A stretch of DNA of 56,432 bases from Asterionella formosa. Lineage: Eukaryota. Position numbers and translations under genes: made by a program. Location: positions 1-56,432 of the forward strand of contig NKIB01013498.1 of assembly GCA_002256025.1 (NCBI GenBank), in the 5' to 3' direction. The notes beneath the pieces are model-generated. The model did no database searches, had not been told where the DNA came from, and saw only the letters and a list, made by a program, of their open reading frames with translations. Shown here piece by piece: positions 7,809 through 56,432 of the stretch. The number at the start of each line of letters is the position of its first letter. Position 1 is the first letter of the stretch.

Positions 7809-9995
7809 AAAGGGGTTCCTCACAGCCGCCCTAATTGTTCTTCAAGCAATGGATGCAATTTTAATGAAAACATTAACATATGACAGGATCCAAATCTGTA
7901 GGAAAACAGCAATCATTTTTCTCAATGATGGTAAAGCCGCTTTTGACCAGATGATACCCTCAGTTGGCGCAATAGCATTAAGAAGGCTTGGAGCTAGTAA
8001 GAATGGAGTCACTGCTCTTTTGCAAACCCTGGAACAAATGAAGTATAGAGTTTGCACCACATTGGGTCTTTCAGAAGATGCTTACTCTAATGTTCAGGAT
8101 TGGTTCCTCTTGGGCACCCTCCAAGGGTTGGGAGCATCACCATCCCTATGATTTGCAATTACATGTGTGTTACTTGGGGCCATCTCTAAAAGATCTCCGG
8201 GATTGACTCTGGCAAATTCTTGGCATACTCAACACTTGCAAAGATCTGCCGATTTCTTTCAATGGAGTCAACCTCCCTTGTGCATATAGCATAGGAGATG
8301 CAGAATATTGCCCAGTATTGGGAACAGTTACTATACACTACAGGAGGAGCATTGGCATTGGAGAAATGTTTTTCGTTGCAATGGACTGGGATTTTTCAAT
8401 GACAAAGCAATACAACCTCAAATCGGCCGCTTTATGCTGACCTCAGGATCAGATCACAGTACTGCAACGTCGATTCCACAGAAAGATGCTATAGAGGGTC
8501 CTCGAAACTTAGGAGCAATGTTGTCTCCAGCTGGAAATAATGCCGACAAATGCACAAAATTAATTCAGAGAGGGAGATCAATGAGTATGAACATTTCAGC
8601 CTCGAAATTGTAAAGGTCAGAAGTCTTGTTAGCATACAAGACAATGTTACCACCAGCAATGAATACCCACTCTGTGTATCTACTTTCAATGCACAAATAT
8701 GTCAACAAATTGATCAGTCATACTTACCTACACTATTAACCAGAATGGGGTTCAATCGTATGACCAAACGGCTTCTCTTCTTCGGCCCTCCTGATTTAGG
8801 AGGTTTTGGTTTCACCAATACACATACAGACCAGGGGATTTCCCAACTACAGCTCCTATTGAGCCACACCAGGAAAAGGGACGAAATTGCTGACATAATT
8901 CTTATCTTGTTAGAGAATATCCAACTCCAGATGGGAGTCACAGGAACACCATTTAAATTCTGTATCAAAATGCACTTGAATTATATTGAGAAATCATGGA
9001 TAACGTCAGCATGGGAGTTCGTGCGTAATATCTCCGAGGGGAAACTTTATCTTGAGCATCCCTTGGAGATTCTAACAACCCAAAGGGAACATGATGTGGC
9101 ACACATGGATGTATTCATTCACCCTAGATGGCAGTTGCTCCCGAAGGAATTGAAAAGATTGAATGCATGCTGAATGTATCTCCAGGTACTCAAAGTGCCA
9201 GACATCGCAGATGGTACTGGCTTGTATCTTACGCCTGCTGCAGTGTTGCAGGGCCTATGCTTTTTTGATAGAAAAAGTCAGTACTCATGGCCACCTCAGG
9301 AATGTCCATCCACAATTGCATGGAGATTATGGCAACAGACCTTAACACATGTCTTTAGTACTGCACCTACTACCTCCATGTCGTGCCTTTGTCAAAAGCT
9401 TGGTAGATGGCTATCGCCTGCTGACCATCATCAAAAATGTACATTCTATATGGACACTGATACGATGACTCTCATCAAATGCACTAACAGTCGGACTCAT
9501 GGGATGGGCCCCATCCCAAACAGGAGGCATTCATTTTTACATGGGGCCACAGAAGAGGAACAAGGACGAATTTTAAAGCAGAAGGTTGATCAAGTTCTTA
9601 CAGTGTTTTACGCTGATAAAGATAATGCGAGCGTGACTGATTGCTCTCTGTTCCTACTACCATGCCGAGTAAGCATCCAGCGCCATAATCGAAATGTTAT
9701 GGATTCAAACAGTGAATCTCTCACTCCAAGCATGAAATCCGGCACATCGGTCATATTTAGAAGATGGAGCTTGGCTCCGCCTCGCACAACGCTTTGAACA
9801 AATGGAAGGGAGATGACCTAGCGTCAGATCACGAACATCATAATAACTGCTGCAGTGTCGGGTCTTCAAGGCACAAATGCGATTTTAGGTTCAGATTTTT
9901 TGTACTATAAAATTATATAATGACCACAAATTCGATTTTATCTTTAGATTTAATGTACTTTAAATTTTAATACACACCACACCAGCTTAAATAAA
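7809..9995 (+). mobile_element. Degraded ORF2 (reverse transcriptase) and 3' UTR of a non-LTR retrotransposon, Ambal-like
   Basis: RT motifs AMDAILMKTLTYD, FLNDGKAAFDQM, GTLQGLGASPSL, RNLGAMLSPAG, MGFNRMTKRLLFFGPPDLGGFG, RLNAC*MYLQV, FLHGATEEEQ. Many stops and frameshifts. Ends in an AT-rich tail (AAATAAAG). Confidence 0.85.
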
Positions 9996-10216
9996 GAAAC
10001 AAATGGCCGTTCTTTTGATGAAGTTGATCTTACAGATTATTTCTACAAAACCATGTATCTTGTCGATTTTTTTCATTGAGCATGTAGACTTTAGTATATA
10101 TTTGCGCAGTCGAAAGACGTTGACCAGGACAGCATTGGCTACCTAGCCATGTTGGTTGAATGTCATTGCTCCTGCATATTTTATAGGCAGGATCAGCCAA
10201 GGTGATCGATTTCTAA

Positions 10217-10500
10217 TTGCAGAAAAAGTTGGCAAAAAGAAATTACTTCTCAGTTTTTGAGGCAAGTGTGAACATCAATATCATTTTATTTTGTTACCGT
10301 ATTAATGAAGCATTCTGTGTCCTTGCATTACTAGAAGGAAAATTCCGATTGCAACCAAAATTGATTGGTTCTGATCCAACCAACGATGCAATTCCCGATG
10401 ATGTGGAGCATTGGAGTGATGTTGTCGAAAAACCACAGTCCAAAAACAGTGTTTTGGGAAGAAGGTTCATTTTTGAATGGTCTAACTGGCTGATTAATGG
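10217..10500 (+). pseudogene. Possible C-terminal fragment of a Plavaka-like transposase
   Basis: Weak resemblance only (KPQSKNSVLGRRFIFEW); lies inside the TE nest. Confidence 0.25.
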
Positions 10501-10706
10501 ACTGATGATTTACTGGCATATTACCGTTGACCATACACTGAACTTTCACAGAAGAGCTGATCTGAACATGAAAACAATCCTTGTGCCTTTAGTACTACCG
10601 CCATGGCAAGACATTCTCTGGATACTTACTTCTCATGTTCCGGATTAATGGATCATTGCAGTGATGAGAAAGCCCTTGATGATTACATTTCAATTTGAAT
10701 GGTCAT

Positions 10707-10900
10707 AGCAATATTTGTCAATTAAATCTTATAGTAGATTAAAGCTATCCAATAATTGCAATTGTGCCCAGATAAATGTACACAATTAGTATCAGTACAA
10801 TGGGACATGTCTCCTCGTCAGCCACACACCCGGAACCCTAGGGACTACATAAAAGAACAACAGCCACCTCATGAGGTGTGCTAACCACTAAGCCATTCCA
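10707..10900 (-). mobile_element. tRNA-derived SINE-like element, copy 1, with 17-bp target-site duplication
   Basis: TCAATTTGAATGGTCAT occurs at 10690-10706 and 10901-10917. Head TGGAATGGCTTAGTGGTTAGCAC contains an A-box. Homologous to 28303-28545. Confidence 0.8.
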
Positions 10901-11152
10901 TCAATTTGAATGGTCATTACAGGAATTCTATTTTTCCCAGTCTAGTGATCATTTCCATATTCTTTAATGTAAAATGCATGTTTGGAGTGATGCCATATAT
11001 GCAATTGTTATCACTGACTTCCCCTTTTTTGATTCTTTCCTATATAGATTGTCAATCCACGCACCAGCAGTTTCTTGTACAATGACTTTGCCGACATTGA
11101 AATGGTGTTTCTTGCGCAGCTACAAACTTTAGAAGAACAAAGCCCCATCTGC

Positions 11153-11858
11153 AAGTTGCGATAATTTTGCTGAAATGGACAATGTGACGCAGGACAGGCG
11201 CTCAAATAGAGAATGTGCGTCATCAACTCTCTCTTTGAATCGACAGCATCACGACTTGTTAGAGACGTGAATAATTATTTCGTCCAAACACGGAAGCGTT
11301 AAAACAAGGCAAATGGCTGAAGAAAGAAAATGACAATGACTGGGGCAATAGAGAGGCTGCCCGAAGCAAAAGTAAGCAAAGTATTAACGAAGAGTAAGCA
11401 AGTCTTGCTTACTTTGCTTTATTCTCTCAAACTCAAAATCGTTCTTATTTTCCGGCTGAAGTGATGAATACAACCTATCTTAATTAACGGTTTTCGAAGT
11501 CGTTGGGATTGGAAATTCATAACTGTCAGCATCATCATAGCAACGACCCGATATAACTATTACAAACTACCGGTATGTATATACATTACATACGCATGTT
11601 AAGTATAAATGAATACTATAAAACATACACTATGCTTACTTTCGCTTCGGGCCGCCTCTCAATTGCCCCTGTCATTTTTTTTGTTTTCTTGACGTTTCCC
11701 TGTTTTGAAGAATAGAATTAGCATAAAACCTAGTACATCACTAAGTGGTGATCACCATGCATACAGATGATTAGGAAGAGTGAATTGATCACATTTTCTA
11801 TGTAATTCAACGCCTATCCTGCGTCATGTTATCAATTTCAGCAAAATGACCACAACTT
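11153..11858. repeat. Long imperfect inverted repeat centred at about 11505
   Basis: 11336-11382 matches the reverse complement of 11629-11675 at 42/47 positions. 11153-11217 aligns with 11790-11858 around the same centre. Confidence 0.85.
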
Positions 11859-12399
11859 CTTGCTTGCTGAGTTTCACAATCGAAATTTTATCAACCGTTT
11901 CTTTTCTGCATATGGTAAGCAAATGTCGACATTGTATGAAAGATCATCGAGTTGCAGGGATACTGAACTAATAAAACACAATAATGCTGTAAAAGTTATG
12001 CTTTGAATCCTCCTTCAAACAAAAAAGCTCATGTTGCGCAATGTAGGCTAAGTGGGGGAGCATTTAATGATTTTTATGAGAATACACAAGAATAAGATTC
12101 TTGTACTATCCTTCAATCAAGTGAATATAATCATATTTACCATGAAGATGATAATGAATCCGACTATGTACAAGAAGAAGAAGTGATTTAAAGGTATCCA
12201 AGGATTGAATATGCATACAATGCAATAGTCAGCCAGATTACCAAGATGAAATCGGCCTCCTCCCTAAACAAGCAATGAAAATATATCTCTACAACCAGAA
12301 TTTCAACTTCCAACGAAGCATTCACTGAACATGAATCTTATTGAATTGGAACTTATGGTTTTCCTTAACAAGAATTATCTTCCCCCTATGTACTTTGAA

Positions 12400-12800
12400 C
12401 ATCTCATAAAATGGCTATCCAAAGCAAAAGCAATGAATAATTTTTAATGAAGGTATCAAGCTCCATCCTACCAAGCCTTGAAGAAATGCATGGATGTTTC
12501 CTCCCCACCACTTTTGACAAGTTGTCAAATGTTGACAAAACAAATAGAGGTTGAGAAAAGTTTAGTGGATGTCATTCCCTGCACACTACATTACTGTGAA
12601 CCAGTGCAGCTCATGTCATCACTATTATGTGATCCTGATACCATGCAGAATTTTGTATGTCACCCTCAAATATTGTGAGTTGGTCAGACAAAAGTGGATG
12701 AGGCTTGAAACATTAGCATTCAGTCTATTCTACTGAAAGTCCATGAGATGCCAAGCATTTTCTGGTTCCAGGACAAGTGAACCCATGATCTTTGTTGAAA
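12400..12800 (+). pseudogene. N-terminal fragment of a Plavaka-like transposase
   Basis: VIPCTLHYCEPVQLMSSLLCDPDTMQNFV resembles the 'F...L.SLL.D..LM' region of Plavaka transposases. Confidence 0.4.
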
Positions 12801-17520: not shown

Positions 17521-17912
17521 AAAAAGGGATGCTCGGAATCTCCATCCGGGAATTATTAATGGTATCATCAACAGGAGCCAATTTTCTTGTATCAATAACT
17601 GAAGTAGAAACGTCATCATCGCTGTCAGTATCAATTACGGGATCCTTTGTACTAGTAGCTGATGGTGTCCTCATTGACAATGAGGTATTACCCCCAATGT
17701 CTCCCAATCGTTGATTGGGTTGCTTTGGATAATCACCTATTCGCTTTTTCTTTGTAAACTCATTTTGGAACTTGCTTCTTTGTTCCATACCGGCAGTATT
17801 TGCCACATGTCGCTTGTTTCCATGAACCTCTTAATGGTTTCTTGAAGACATTGCTTGTACTACTTGATAACTGTTGTCGTTGTCTTCCGTAAAATTCGAT
17901 GACCTTAACTTC

Positions 17913-18282
17913 ATTTACTGTCCCGCTGCAGTAGCAGCAGTCATAGACATATGGTGTTCTATTGCTTGCTTATTACTCCGACATAGGCTTTTCAGTTTCA
18001 CAATCATACAATCCTAAAACTATGATGATTTACTGTCCCACTGCAGTAGCAACAGTCCTGAACATATGGTGTTCTATTGGTTTTTAGTTTTACAATCATA
18101 CGATTCTAAAACTATGATGATTTACTGTCCCACTGCAGTAGCAACAGTCCTGAACATATGGTGTTCTATTGGGTTTTTAATTTTACGATCATATGATCCT
18201 AAAACTATGATGATTTACTGTCCCACTGCAGTAGCAACAGTCCTGAACATATGGTGTTCTGTTGCTAGTTTACTACTCCGAC
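17913..18282. repeat. Tandem minisatellite, about 92-93-bp unit, about 4 copies
   Basis: Core TTTACTGTCCC.CTGCAGTAGCA.CAGTC...ACATATGGTGTTCT starts at 17914, 18029, 18121 and 18214. Confidence 0.95.
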
Positions 18283-27900: not shown

Positions 27901-28302
27901 AACATTGGTTGGTTTACCCAGGTTGGAAAGGATTGATACCTCCTCTGGGATGGCTCCAGCCCAGGTAATGATGGTGATGGAAAATTCCTGATTCAATTTT
28001 CAGTTTAATTTGTGATCCAAATGAAATCTGCGACATTGATTTGTTGATAATAAATATTGAAACTGTTCGAGTGGTCTGGCATTTAAGTCTACAGTTCTTC
28101 AAGAGTAATCTCATTAAAAATTTTGATATTATATAGAAACAAAACAAGATTGTTTGGCCATCACGTCGTGTAGCTTTTGTAAATTATGTAGGTTTTGTAA
28201 ATTATACTCAATAACAATAGATATATGTAATTGAAACAATACAAAATATAGTCATAGCGATATAAAATACTATATTAGATGACTGGGTCTTCCCAATCAC
28301 CA

Positions 28303-28545
28303 GGGAAATGGCTTAGTGGTTAGCACAACTTCTCGCTGGTGGGTTCGGTTCCTGTATTCTCCACCTGTCTTCTTTTTCATCAAGCCCCTAGGGTCTCAGG
28401 GAGTGTGGCTGACGAAAAGACAGGCCCTGTTGTATTGTATGGACTAATCAAGCTGGTACTAATTGAGTCTATTTATTTGGGTCCAAGTGCAGTTATTGGA
28501 TAGCTTTAATGGACTATAAAAATTTAAATGACATTTTATAGGTTA
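28303..28545 (+). mobile_element. tRNA-derived SINE-like element, copy 2
   Basis: A-box TGGCTTAGTGG (28309-28319), B-box-like GGTTCGGTTCC (28342-28352), degenerate acceptor stem GGGAAAT...ATTCTCC. Body and tail align with copy 1. No TSD found. Confidence 0.72.
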
Positions 28546-29290
28546 TCCATACTAATAATGGATCTAGAAATTCTTGGTTAGCTGTTTTTCTGATGTCACA
28601 GTCAATGGGTGGTGGCTGACAACGTTAGCTAGGATTTACCAAAACCCGATAGCATGGTTTTTTCGTCTGTTGAACCAAAAGCCAAAAGAAATATTTTAAA
28701 ATTTTTGGTTGTCGTTTTGGACCACAGTTAGCATTGGCCTAACAGTTGGAAAAAACTGAAAGTCCCCTCTCAATTTTTCAGCCAATTAAAAAATCTATGG
28801 ATACTGCGGATCCAATCTTGATTTTCAGATTTTTGTGATTAACTATTATGACTATTATTCACAGCCTAAGTGAATTTTTGTTTTGTTGATACTTACACAT
28901 CATCAAGTCTGCTTCATTCCAACATACTTGGAAAGTCTGTTACTTGATAAAAATAGCCATGTTCTATTCAAAGTAAAAAAACTTCAACCACACTTTTCAG
29001 TATTAAATATTAGGGGTATAGTCGGACATCACTTCAGGCCAGTGCAAGCTCCACCAGTTCTACTGTTCTTGGTAACAAACTATGAAAGATGACTGTTAAG
29101 ATAATATGCTCTGCAGCACCAAGATTTCTGTGTCCAACAAAAGCAATCCACACCAGGAAAAACGCCAGTGTTCCAAGCAAGTCCACGATGCTTGGTTACA
29201 AACTAAGAACGATGTCTGTGTAGACCACATTTTCCATAGCACCAAGATTTCTGCATGATCCAGGGAAAGCAATCCAAGCCAGGTAGTCTA

Positions 29291-34543: not shown

Positions 34544-35760
34544 TGGTTTCCTTAAGTAGACCCCTTGCCGATTTCAGCAATCCCACGGCTGGAAAACCAA
34601 GGGGCAATTGTCGTCTGTTGTCTTGCCAAAATGCAAACATATGAAATACACAAAATACATTTCAATGATGGGCAATATCGGACCTTTGGCAATTTTCGAG
34701 GTGAAGATAGGAAATATATTAAATATCCTTTATATGATGGGCAATAGTAAGCTAAAATTGACATTTATGCTTTATTTGTGGGCAGTAGGTAAGCGAATGA
34801 CGCGACGATAGCTAGAGTGGGAATTGCCTCAACAATACCCTTCTTGGCGGCTACTTGCCTTCTCGTACCGGGCGCCACTCATACGGTCAACCTACTTGCG
34901 CCACCCAGCCTCGAACACATGTATACTCGCAGGCAAGAGACCACCTCGGGCGTGTATTGCCTTCAGCAACATCAAAGCTGTTGCACATAAGTATGGCATC
35001 AGTGCCAGCAATATTCGGTGCTGGAAAGCTAACTTTCATGGTTTTGAGACTTGTTATACTGATGAAGAAGGTTTATTGTTGGATGAGGGTCGTTTGTTAT
35101 TAAAGAAACATACATTTCATTTTTGGCAACAAGCCACAGATCAATAGTGCAGCTGAATTTGCCTTGTGTGTATGATCAGCTTTGTGCTGATGATCATGCT
35201 TGTTTGGTCACGTTGCTTGCTGCTGAGCTGAAGATCATGCTTGTTCGGTCATGTTGCTTGCTGCTGAGCTGAAGTGCTTGTTGGGAAATAATGTTAGGTT
35301 GACTATCATGCAACAGTGTGTAGCTCGTTGGTGCCCGCAAAACATTGTATATCATCATATCACTCACAAGGCGCAAAACACACCGCGCTATGCATGTACT
35401 GAGTGTCATGCAGGAGTATCTGGTATACATAGTAGATGAAACAAACATTTATTTTGATATGGTGGGCGGGCTCACGCTAGCTGATAGAGGTGCCAAAACA
35501 ATCAGTTTATGCACCAATGGCAGCAGCATGCGTTGCTCAGTGTTGTTGGGCGTTTCAATGTCTGGAGAGAAGCTTGCTCCTGCTCTTGTTGTTTTCAGAG
35601 GAGCACCTCATGCCAGGATCCAGCGAGAATTTAACAACCAACAGTTTGATTATCCCCCACATATGGTTTATTGTTCTTGTCAGACAAAAGCGTGGGTTGA
35701 CAAGTTGGTTTTTTCATTTTGGATTCGCGACATTTGGCATGATGACATATGTAGTACTAC
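34544..35760 (+). pseudogene. pogo/Tigger-type (Tc1-mariner superfamily) transposase pseudogene with upstream region
   Basis: HTH-like NIKAVAHKYGISASNIRCWK, THKAQN. DDE_1-type VDETNIYFDM..TLADRGAKTIS...RCSVLLGVSMSGEKL..LVVFRG...QTKAWVD...W. Frameshifted and truncated. Confidence 0.85.
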
Positions 35761-37204
35761 TGCTACTAGTACATGGTATGTAGTATCATTAGCCAAAGTA
35801 TTACATAGGTAGGTGGGTGTGATGGCAGTTGGGTTGAAATGATGATGTCACATATTAAGCAAAATCGATAGTACTACTTTAAGCAAAACAGTCAAACATT
35901 AAGCAAATCCTATGGAAGCATATGGCAGAATCAGCAAAACAAATTGGTCTGAATATTGTAGGCTAAATCAGATTATAGCTACAAACAATTCGAAACAACA
36001 AGCCGGCTGATTTGGTTTATTAAATGAAAATCAAAGAGATACACATGAATTAATTTGGAATTGGAATCACTATTGCTGGCATGAAGACTTATGTACTAGT
36101 GCTAGTACATATGAATATGATACCACAATACTTGAGGCTACAAAAAAATACAACTTGGGTTGATTTTTACAAGTAATGCCGGGGTACTCGGAGTACCTGG
36201 TTCCATTAGTAATGATACTGTATTTTTCCTGCACTGTTAGTTCCTACTATGACATCACCATTGAAACCAGTTGTGTATACTATTGCTTAGTATATACAGA
36301 GAGGAATAAATTTATAAATGTGTGTGTATCATACTGGGTTTAATATTTCTTGTTCCGGCATGCGCATCCTTGTGTAATAGTAGTATCTTAGAAAGAAAAG
36401 CAAGCAGGGTAGTGCATCTCCCCAGAAAACATAGCAACTGTTTTGATACAGTCCTTGAAAGTATCGGATAAAACAGGGTAATTTGTATATCATATCTTCT
36501 ATTATGACTGATGTTTGCTCAAGTACAACCAGAAATAATCCCTTCACATGTTTCAGACCAGCTGAAGGATGATCGGGTGCAAATTCTGTGGTATCAGAAT
36601 ATATGCTGCTTAGCCTGTAGATTGTCCATAACAATGTATCTAGAAATTCTTGGTTAGCTGTTTTTCCATCATTACTCCCTTTTCTTCATGGTGATGATAG
36701 ATAAAGTCTTTGCAATAGGTTTATTTTGAAGAGGCTTGGATGATAAGTATTAATGCAGGATGCTGTGTGAACCAGCATTAAGCCACCATTGTCCATCAAG
36801 CATCTTTTGGACAGTTCTTACTCAAGTTCCACTTCCTCCCTCCAAGACAAGAACTGGATTACAACCTTAACAACCTTCTCCTTTCCCAAATTGGTATTCA
36901 TTGTGTAGGGCAACAATATAAGACAACACCACCAATGGATGCGCATCCATTCTCTTACAAAGAATATTATGCATACATATTTTTCTCTCCCCCCTTCCAA
37001 TAATGCCTACCAGTATGCATTATTTCAATGTAAAAAATACAGGTAATCAGTTCTACGTATAGTGCTGCTTTGTGGATAACTCATGCTCTTGATCCACCCC
37101 TCTCCAAGTCTACCAACAGCTTCATCAACAATCTGTTCGTATACTAACTACTATAGCTAGAAAGGGTGGTACATTATCCTGAATTCCAAAACTTTATCGT
37201 GTCC

Positions 37205-54251: not shown

Positions 54252-55976
54252 TCATCCAGCCGTACCATTGGATAGGCCTGCATTATAGGCCTGCACCACT
54301 TGCAAGGTATCACCAATACTCCAAAAGTCAACAGATAGTAAGTTCACCGGTGATGGTAGCATCGCATTGCAAGCATCAAGTCGAGTTTGCACTTGTAACG
54401 CAGTGTTCGCCTGGCTTGCTACTTGTTCATCTGGAAGCCCAAAGAAAGGTCCACGAGTAAAATGATTTGACAAACCAAACGCTGCAGTCACTGGGCCCCT
54501 CAATGCAACACAGGACATGCTATAATCTTCCAATTCAGTAACACCTGTCAAGTCATAGGACGTTTCCCACATGTAGTCAAATGTGTTGAGAACAAGAGGA
54601 GGACATACGCCTACTACATTGCAGTCGCCACCATCGTGTTGAAAAATAATGAGACGTTTATTGGCATCAACAAGTTCTCCCAGAGTTGGCCAGTCTTGAC
54701 CGGTAGTATGACCATAAATCAAATCTTGAAACCCTGGTACAGTCACCATACTATTCCAATTGCTCCACAAAAACGAATTATCGGAATCCGTGACTTGCAA
54801 TTCGATGATAACCACTTCATTTACATTTGCCTCCATAAAAGTGGCAATCCCAGTAGCCACACCAACCGCATCTCGGCTACCTGCGGCGCAAAATCCATGG
54901 CAGAATCCACAATTGCACACATCGAGTTGCAATCCACGAAAGCCAGCATTGAGAGCCTCTTCCATGGAATATAATTGATTGTACCCGATGAAGCCATCTT
55001 GTCTCGTTGACATGGCATTGTGTACAGTACCGTAGACAATGTCATTGACTCGTTGATAGCAGTTAGAAGCAAGGCCATTGCAAATTCGTGTTTCTGTTGC
55101 AATTGCGGTCGGGAGTGAAGTAGCAAGCCTAGATGGATAAGTCGACGGCGGGGATGAAGTAGTGATGGAAGGATACAACGTTGGGATTGGAGATGTCGGC
55201 GAGAATGATGGTGGGAATGTAGTACCGATGGAAGGATACAAAGTTTGGGTTGAAGATATTGGTGAAAATGATAGTGGGGGTGTTGTACCAATGGAAGGAT
55301 ACAAAGTTGGGCTAGGCGATGTTGGTGAAAACGATGGTGGAAATGTAGTAGTTGTGGTAGGATACAAAGTTGGGCTAATAGATGTTGGTGAGAGTGATGG
55401 CTGGGGTGATGAAGTTGTGGTAGGGTACAAAGTTGGGCTAATAAATGTTGGAGAGAGTGATGGTTGGGGTGATGAAGTTGTGGTTGGGTTCAAAGTAGGG
55501 TTCGGAGGAGTGGGGGACAACGATGGTTGGATTGAAATAGAAATAGTCGGCTCCAAAGACGGGACGGGAGACGTCGTTGGAAAATAGACTGTCGGAGGAG
55601 CAAAGCCTTGAAGAATTGGTTGCGGCATCGGCGACGATGGACCCACGATGGTAGCAGACCCATTTGGAACATCATTATCGGATGGTGCGACCGATGGAGT
55701 CAAGAATTGCGAAGGTGAAATCTGTGTCAACGTGTTTGATCCACTTGCTACGTTGGATCCCTGGTCGTCATCACTTGCACGTTGCCATGCCACAACACCG
55801 AGCACACCAGCCACAACCATCAGAAAGCAAATCAAAACAAGTATGCCATGTCGTCGTGAAAACTGCGCGACAGGTGTTTTGTTGTGGCGATCCTCCTCAG
55901 TATCGAATGATCCTTCCAAAGACGCTAAATCGTCCCACGACGAGGGGGGAAAGGCAAAAGAACTTTGCATGGCCAT
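54252..55976 (-). CDS. Type II membrane protein: TM helix, Pro/Thr/Ser stalk, PI-PLC-like phosphodiesterase domain
   Basis: TM segment GILVLICFLMVVAGVLGVVAW; CNG...TVHNAMS, NQ....EALNAGFRGLQLDV, CHG, NEVVIIELQ, WPTLGELV, VNLLSVDFW. Confidence 0.85.
   Translation of the reverse strand: MAMQSSFAFPPSSWDDLASLEGSFDTEEDRHNKTPVAQFSRRHGILVLICFLMVVAGVLGVVAWQRASDDDQGSNVASGSNTLTQISPSQFLTPSVAPSDNDVPNGSATIVGPSSPMPQPILQGFAPPTVYFPTTSPVPSLEPTISISIQPSLSPTPPNPTLNPTTTSSPQPSLSPTFISPTLYPTTTSSPQPSLSPTSISPTLYPTTTTTFPPSFSPTSPSPTLYPSIGTTPPLSFSPISSTQTLYPSIGTTFPPSFSPTSPIPTLYPSITTSSPPSTYPSRLATSLPTAIATETRICNGLASNCYQRVNDIVYGTVHNAMSTRQDGFIGYNQLYSMEEALNAGFRGLQLDVCNCGFCHGFCAAGSRDAVGVATGIATFMEANVNEVVIIELQVTDSDNSFLWSNWNSMVTVPGFQDLIYGHTTGQDWPTLGELVDANKRLIIFQHDGGDCNVVGVCPPLVLNTFDYMWETSYDLTGVTELEDYSMSCVALRGPVTAAFGLSNHFTRGPFFGLPDEQVASQANTALQVQTRLDACNAMLPSPVNLLSVDFWSIGDTLQVVQAYNAGLSNGTAG
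55140..55540 (-). repeat. In-frame 63-bp (21-aa) coding tandem repeat, about 6 units
   Basis: PTTTSSPQPSLSPT.ISPTLY and PSIGTT.PPSFSPTSP.PTLY units. Confidence 0.85.
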
Positions 55977-56432
55977 GGTACTATCGCAATCGAATGTCCA
56001 ATCCTTGACGAGTCTTTAGAAGACTCAACTTCCTCGTCGCTTCGGACCGGTCCTGTCAAAATACTGTCGACCATGAATTAAAAATACTGCAATTGATAAT
56101 CCGGTATCACGACCATGTTACCTATGTAGAGGGGATGGTGTAATGGTACCTGGTACCAAGTATTGTCTAAGGGGGGATAATATTAATATAGAGAGGTGAG
56201 CAACATAAATTTCTTCCTCATCACCTTCATTCAGTCTTGGAAAGGAGTGAAAGCACGAAGAATAACCTATGTTGGAGAAAATATTTTAGGAAAGAAAATC
56301 CCGGCATAAATTACCTACTACATATTGAATCGAATGAATCAAGAAAGAATATGGTACCAGAGAATTCGAAAACAATCTACGCCAACAGTAAAAACCCATA
56401 ATTCTATTAAAACTCTTAGGAACGATTACAAT

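Follow-up and report, generated by a model that had tools for sequence, protein, structure and literature searches.

The window, by which is meant the whole stretch of 56,432 nucleotides analysed here, encodes a DEAD-box helicase, a 1777-aa UCH/DUSP protease, an OTU protease, an AlgH-like protein and Snf7 in long and nearly intron-free frames, as well as two chlorophyll a/b-binding proteins. The diatom host supposed in the initial annotation of this DNA is borne out by a protein search with the helicase (DDX27), in which all 14 organism-named matches among the 120 matches listed are diatoms (Fragilaria, Nitzschia, Cylindrotheca, Fistulifera, Seminavis, Discostella, Attheya, Thalassiosira, Bacillariaceae, and names beginning with "Thala" and "Skelet"). 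Among the named matches listed, identity amounts to 56-63% for the full-length ones and to 61-67% for those covering 78-86% of the query, and the metagenome-protein matches listed reach 99%, 84%, and 81% identity. Public sequencing runs in which the locus can be found comprise, once runs with small shares are left aside, an algal sample and freshwater or lake metagenomes.

Between 10 and 20 kb, the GC content is 0.35-0.38 and no Pfam-recognisable ORF is present, so that this region looks like a nest of repeats. The stretch at 9500-12500 was compared, at 80% likeness, with Logan contigs from three DNA runs of three different studies (X1, X2, and X6) and from one RNA run (X16); the contig depth summed in this way is not a copy number, the runs being metagenomes to which other organisms may contribute. 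Besides the 194-bp insert that is the subject of this report, a 706-bp element is found at 11153-11858, 240 bp from the insert. It has two pairs of inverted arms (11153-11235 with 11776-11858, 83 nt, 73% complementary; 11324-11382 with 11629-11687, 59 nt, 83%), which contigs join on opposite strands, and in the three runs, the contig depth summed over it exceeds that of the unique flanks by a factor of 60-160; it is probably a high-copy foldback or MITE-like element. At 12227-12500 and beyond, summed depth amounts to up to about 68 times the unique level in X1, and still higher values are obtained in X2 and X6. At 17874-18265, in the low-GC region, a 92-nt unit is present four times in tandem, with 66-96% identity to the reference copy and 91-96% among the three best. 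On the other side of the insert, a 591-nt contig of the metatranscriptome run X16 matches 9500-9843 without any difference and overlaps a 207-aa ORF (9174-9797) for which no Pfam match was obtained; this stretch may be transcribed, DNA carry-over being possible too. Further downstream, an ORF fragment at 35324-35809 (plus strand) has a match to DDE_1, an endonuclease family (22.1 bits, E = 1.3e-4); it is the only trace of a transposase in the frames scanned and likely a remnant of a pogo/Tc1-type transposase. Finally, a tandem array with a 63-nt period and about seven units of decaying identity is found at 55150-55590, inside a 587-aa ORF (54252-56015) that matches no Pfam family.

Two copies of the element in the window

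The insert occupies 10707-10900 on the minus strand (copy 1) and is bounded on both sides by the same 17-mer, TCAATTTGAATGGTCAT, which is found exactly at 10690-10706 and at 10901-10917, i.e., on the 3' side and the 5' side, respectively, with regard to the strand of the element. This pair of flanks, already described as identical in the initial annotation, is retrieved by a repeat scan of the whole window as D13 (17 nt, spacing 211, 100% identity), one of 13 families of direct repeats with a length of 15 nt or more and a distance of no more than 600 bp. The remaining 12 are tandem or near-tandem arrays, low-complexity runs, or imperfect longer repeats. The chance expectation for an exact 17-mer pair within 600 bp is about 0.002 per 56 kb (56432 x 600 / 4^17), and the pair is a target-site duplication (TSD). 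The insert contains no ORF of at least 50 aa, no meaningful ORF runs across it or lies around it, and its excision restores no frame; an inverted-repeat scan found no pair within 10690-10917. In the contigs of the DNA runs, the flanks of copy 1 are at 1-2 times the unique depth, and copy 1 is therefore not nested in another repeat. It is an insertion into near-unique, non-coding, repeat-rich DNA.

A second copy of about 243 bp (copy 2), whose 3' limit is approximate, is found at 28303-28545 on the plus strand, as delimited by alignment with copy 1 and with a third copy on a metagenome contig, L001, which is described below. The alignment of the insert with this stretch, proposed at the outset, holds with 77% identity over 192 aligned columns, with 47 gap columns, and the three sequence blocks that had been quoted as shared are all present in both copies. 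With blastn, the similarity is divided into three collinear pieces of 81 bp (82.7%), 79 bp (77%), and 21 bp (100%); the other matches in the window are all of at most 31 nt with E values of at least 0.021, and no third copy was found within the window. Copy 2 has an A box, TGGCTTAGTGG, at 28309-28319, a B-like box, GGTTCGGTTCC, which is one base off, at 28342-28352, and a terminal TTTT at 28534-28537. Both boxes had been ascribed to it earlier; the "residual acceptor stem" ascribed to it at the same time is weak, however, since folding of the head gives no cloverleaf and the Rfam tRNA model gives no match at E values up to 10. At this same limit, the sole Rfam match on 28200-28650 is a Listeria sRNA, which was judged to be due to chance. 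No TSD was found around copy 2, an insertion of greater age that has decayed and is situated in an intergenic spacer.

Regarding the anatomy of copy 1, motif scanning located an A box, TGGCTTAGTGG, at 10885-10895 (minus strand) and an internal TTTT. A core block, CCCTAGGG...GTGTGGCTGACGA, at 10815-10843 (minus strand) is conserved in all three copies and is the pattern with which L001 was retrieved, while a tail block, TTATTGGATAGCTTTAAT, at 10738-10755 (minus strand), is identical in copies 1 and 2, has one change in L001, and lies in the bin with the highest summed contig depth. Copy 1 starts with (T)GGAATGG, i.e., with one or two G fewer than the family start. Compared with copy 2 and L001, it is missing 25 nt that correspond to the T arm with the B box and to the 3' half of the acceptor stem, the deletion point lying between 10863 and 10864, and an 18-nt block of the body is also absent from it. 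Because the B box is lost, copy 1 is very probably immobile. Thus, in correction of the initial annotation, the member that bears the perfect TSD is a defective one and probably a dead one. A source having the form of copy 1 could not have yielded copy 1 by means of RNA polymerase III (Pol III) alone, except if copy 1 acquired its deletions in the course of insertion or later.

A third copy and the family in sequencing runs

A scan of metagenome contigs with the core block as the pattern returned a single locus, the 1317-bp contig L001, in which a fuller copy of about 252 bp is found at about 519-770, in a context unrelated to those of the window copies. It starts with GGGAATGG, has an A box, TGGCTTAATGG, and a perfect B box, GGTTCGATTCC, its core and tail blocks match those of the window copies, and its 3' end is TTTTT. 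Its 5' end is abutted by AATTTCCTGTCT and its 3' end by AATTTCTGTCT, which match at 11 of 12 positions with one indel and represent a possible, imperfect TSD of about 12 bp. Pairwise identity over the element is 85.5% between copy 1 and L001, 77.1% between copies 1 and 2, and 76.7% between copy 2 and L001. In these three unrelated contexts, the 5' start is common to within 1-2 nt and the 3' end is similar; as for the TSD, it is of 17 bp and perfect in copy 1, of about 12 bp and imperfect in L001, and lacking in copy 2, three copies being compared in all. Exact-pattern scans with the T arm and with the tail block gave 0 loci each in the viral_contigs and genome_contigs sets. In the fold of the tail consensus from the three copies, 0 of the 21 pairs exhibit a compensatory change.

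The first 62 nt of the L001 copy, which make up its head, have a cloverleaf as their minimum-energy fold, although with a z value of only -1.6. Acceptor stem, D arm, and T arm are all present in this fold, and the anticodon stem has 5 bp and is closed by a 4-nt loop. The Rfam tRNA model aligns with this head from end to end, the anticodon arm being shortened, with 17.4 bits (E = 2), and the gathering score of 29 is thus not reached. At the gathering score, Rfam gives 0 matches in the whole window, and ARAGORN predicts a tRNA gene neither in the window nor in L001. All three copies have the A box, whereas the B box is perfect only in L001, differs by one base in copy 2, and has been lost by deletion from copy 1. 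Concerning the tRNA-derived head claimed in the initial annotation, the cloverleaf fold of L001 and the A and B boxes speak for it, but no head passes the thresholds of the two tRNA finders; the heads of the family are tRNA-like, yet below these thresholds. At the level of the family, the element has a tRNA-related head with internal A and B boxes, the tRNA-finder support for it being sub-threshold.

A full member of the family is about 250 bp in length and is best seen in L001. Its tRNA-like head starts with GGGAATGG and comprises a 7-bp acceptor stem, a D arm, an anticodon arm that is shortened, and a T arm, the A box being located in the D arm and the B box GGTTCGATTCC in the T arm. The head is followed by the conserved core CCCTAGGG...GTGTGGCTGACGA, a more variable middle, a conserved tail block TTGGATAGCTTTAAT...GATTTAATTGACA, and a short T run, in this order. 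The tail of the family is a T run and not a poly(A), as is apparent both from the L001 copy and copy 2 and from the consensus of the loose contig ends considered below.

That more than two copies exist is indicated both by L001 and by the depth of the insert in the DNA runs. For a depth of the unique flanks of about 976 in X1, 80 in X2, and 47 in X6, the bin at 10712-10812, which corresponds to the tail half, reaches summed depths of 354806, 38091, and 26186, respectively, and the bin at 10813-10913, which corresponds to the head half, 77337, 7884, and 9825. Both bins are therefore at about 80-560 times the flank depth, a ratio obtained from metagenome contigs and not from a genome census. As summed depth cannot be equated with copy number and may include sequence of other organisms, abundance is read only as "hundreds" of copies.

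Shared 5' ends, which had been named beforehand as a feature to look for, are found in the three runs, with 31 (X1), 24 (X2), and 22 (X6) contigs that break at exactly 10899. Past this position, the contigs diverge (consensus agreement 0.43-0.46) and the loose sequence begins with CC, which on the element strand corresponds to the G residues missing from copy 1. At the 3' end, loose ends are found at 10715-10720 in 96 contigs of X1 (22+50+24), 58 of X2 (40+18), and 40 of X6 (28+12), with an agreement of 0.45-0.54 and a consensus ending in a plus-strand A run, i.e., an element-strand T run. Dispersal of the family can thus be seen in metagenome contigs as many copies with a common 5' end and unrelated flanks. 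A further set of loose ends is located at 10863 (46 contigs in X1, 20 in X2) and is much more uniform, with an agreement of 0.85-0.86; the reverse complement of its consensus contains GGTTCGATTCC, which means that most copies carry the T arm that copy 1 is without.

As for the insertion at 10707-10900 itself, contigs of X2 span the 5' junction as well as the 3' junction of copy 1, showing 2-4 differences (record 18 over 10200-10850 and record 19 over 10870-11247), and the insertion is therefore common to another data set. Record 26 of X6 was rejected as a bridge of the 5' junction, as it has 30 letters on the SINE side and the rule is 31. Regarding an empty site, no joint skipping 10707-10917 is present among the 15 joints listed of 117. 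In the RNA run X16, the depth is 70.7 and 1676.7 in the two SINE bins vs. 12.4 in the nearby unique part. The X16 contigs with SINE-like sequence extend at least 255 letters past the element, however, and would represent embedded copies at most. As these contigs run past the element and DNA carry-over is possible, transcription of the SINE is not claimed from this depth, and no unit-length Pol III RNA is found among the X16 RNA contigs with SINE sequence.

Mode of insertion and alternative readings

What was observed directly is a repeat family with shared ends, unlike flanks, a TSD, a tRNA-like head, and a T-run tail, the copies being short and non-coding (194, about 243, and about 252 bp). 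The insert is likely, with good confidence, a member of a family of tRNA-derived short interspersed elements (SINEs, of the SINE2 type) residing in the nuclear genome of a diatom, and target-primed reverse transcription would be the way in which it was inserted. The reading as a SINE family, which is that of the initial annotation, is supported. Findings that would speak against it had been named in advance, namely that only two copies exist, that copies always sit inside a larger element, or that the other copies are devoid of TSDs and of A and B boxes, and none of these was obtained. The copies are not always inside a larger element, since flanks are unlike at both ends and those of copy 1 are at 1-2 times the unique depth. 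Nor are the other copies devoid of these features: L001 has both boxes and a possible, imperfect TSD, and the T arm with GGTTCGATTCC is found in 46 contigs of X1 and 20 of X2; around copy 2, no TSD was found.

We infer transcription by Pol III, an RNA intermediate, and a LINE partner. In the proposed mechanism, Pol III would start from the internal A and B boxes and stop at the T run, which would act as the terminator. The endonuclease and reverse transcriptase of an autonomous non-LTR element would then copy the SINE RNA into a staggered chromosomal break, whose repair would give rise to a long target duplication of variable length. Target-primed reverse transcription is described as giving TSDs of up to about 20 bp (PMC6007223). 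With a T run as its tail, the family cannot depend on simple L1-type recognition of a poly(A), and the conserved tail block suggests that the partner LINE recognises this block stringently. A reverse-transcriptase or endonuclease domain was found in none of the window frames scanned (12 of the 15 longest in one scan and 36 in another, out of 73 frames of at least 110 aa).

That no LINE was found in these frames can also be read in favor of a different enzymatic origin, in which a tRNA-headed SINE would be moved by machinery other than that of a classical LINE, e.g., by a Penelope-like element or another reverse transcriptase. The T-run tail, by excluding L1-type poly(A) recognition, leaves room for this explanation, and in the accounts given of diatom repeats, LTR elements dominate and LINEs form a small fraction (PMC7466962; PMC5859163; PMC8613185). 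However, LINEs are annotated in diatoms, with 2,350-2,626 in Cyclotella cryptica (PMC7466962) and 0.64% of the genome in Chaetoceros tenuissimus (PMC8613185), and T-tailed SINEs with RTE partners are presented as an established case (PMC6007223). As nothing points to a Penelope-like element specifically, such a non-LINE origin is considered improbable, although it has the best prospects among the alternatives. Less probable still is a non-autonomous DNA transposon of the MITE type, or another cut-and-paste element, in which the tRNA-like stretch would be there by chance. The high-copy inverted-repeat element next to the insert (11153-11858) and the DDE_1 transposase fragment (35324-35809) indicate that DNA transposons are active in this genome, which is a point for this explanation. 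Yet the ends of the insert are joined by no inverted repeat such as the terminal ones that characterize MITEs, its 5' end coincides with position 1 of the tRNA-like cloverleaf, its 3' end is a T run, and the apparent TSD lengths differ (17 vs. about 12 bp) instead of being of one fixed short length. To our knowledge, a TSD of 17 bp is longer than that made by any known DDE superfamily.

The possibility that there is no mobile family at all, the 17-bp repeat being the product of a local duplication or of misassembly and the similarity at 28.3 kb that of an ordinary dispersed repeat, has to be weighed against the contigs. A perfect TSD was seen only once, and X1 may be the very sample behind the assembly of the window, in which case it would not be independent. 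On the other hand, both junctions of copy 1 are bridged in X2, which is an independent run, with 2-4 differences, each run has dozens of contigs that break off at one or the other of two common ends and differ in their flanks, a third copy is located on the unrelated contig L001, and the pair of 17-mers has the chance expectation of about 0.002 given above. This explanation is accordingly regarded as the least probable of all, slightly behind the DNA transposon.

Relation to known SINEs and significance

By architecture, the closest described elements are the Au-like SINEs of flowering plants, in which T-tailed tRNA SINEs moved by RTE-clade LINEs have been documented (Nishiyama and Ohshima, 2018; PMC6007223). 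Like the family reported here, Au-like SINEs have a tRNA-related head, internal A and B boxes, and a short non-coding body, followed by a conserved 3' region and then by a short T stretch instead of a poly(A), which is described as TTT to TTTTT in Au-like SINEs. TSDs of at least 10 nt and hundreds to thousands of copies are also common to both. Differences can be found as well. The signature described for Au-like SINEs is a TSD that starts with T about 10 nt downstream of the T stretch (PMC6007223), whereas the TSD of copy 1 begins with A; around position -10 of the element strand, copy 1 has no T stretch, and its positions -14 to -18 are occupied by an A5 run. Copy 1 is one example only. L001 is ambiguous in this respect, so that two cases in all are set against a signature that is statistical. 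Moreover, Au-like SINEs are described as having their 3' end in common with an RTE-clade LINE, while the diatom family is likened to them by architecture only, no LINE having been found in the window frames scanned. Lastly, the hosts of Au-like SINEs are flowering plants, and the family reported here is found in a diatom.

Outside plants, tRNA-related SINEs are also known in lineages once thought to be SINE-free. The infSINE families of Phytophthora infestans are tRNA-related SINEs, and their hosts, the oomycetes, belong to the stramenopiles, as do diatoms. AfuSINE2 from Aspergillus fumigatus, also a tRNA-related SINE, is reported with TSDs of 4-14 bp (PMC5063351). Both resemble the diatom family in being tRNA-related, in having TSDs, and in occurring in such lineages, a likeness that is drawn from their published descriptions only.

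In diatoms, SINEs had been thought poorly described by the initial annotation. This is right insofar as no family-level description of a diatom SINE was found in the full-text literature, repeat-library entries lying outside this comparison, and four motif strings of the family matched 0 papers there; it has to be qualified in that SINEs are already an annotation category in at least five species. For Phaeodactylum tricornutum, 13 copies of a "putative SINE" totaling 1,454 bp are given (PMC5859163), and SINEs are stated to be newly detected in C. cryptica (PMC7466962). One account has SINEs reported only in P. tricornutum, C. cryptica, and Skeletonema costatum (PMC8147415), while others give a share of 0.02% of the genome in C. 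tenuissimus (PMC8613185) and a GC figure for SINEs in Pleurosigma pacificum (PMC12803021). These annotated SINEs have the host group and the class label in common with the family reported here. As far as these accounts go, they are category counts from automatic pipelines given without anatomy, TSDs, or consensus, so that the comparison is one of descriptions only; the present family appears far more abundant than the 13 copies counted in P. tricornutum.

Against this background, the family could be the first SINE family of a diatom to be defined at the sequence level, with hundreds of copies, a tRNA head, a T-run tail, and TSDs showing target-primed reverse transcription, a claim put forward tentatively and with a little less than even confidence. 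If this is true, a LINE partner of RTE-like, stringent character would be suggested by the T-run tail together with the conserved tail block, in a lineage in which little work has been devoted to non-LTR retrotransposition. As the family is present in several freshwater populations, its insertions would then be usable as markers of diatom strains.

The element is of an ordinary kind, in a host group where this kind has hardly been described, and knowledge of how SINEs work is unchanged by it. Most unicellular eukaryotes were for a long time believed to be without SINEs, a view that is quoted in work on diatom genomes (PMC7466962; PMC5859163). A bounded, high-copy, tRNA-derived family with a TSD means that LINE-type retrotransposition has shaped a diatom genome. 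In practical terms, the family consensus is useful for repeat masking and annotation in related genomes, and single insertions, being present or absent, could mark freshwater diatom populations.
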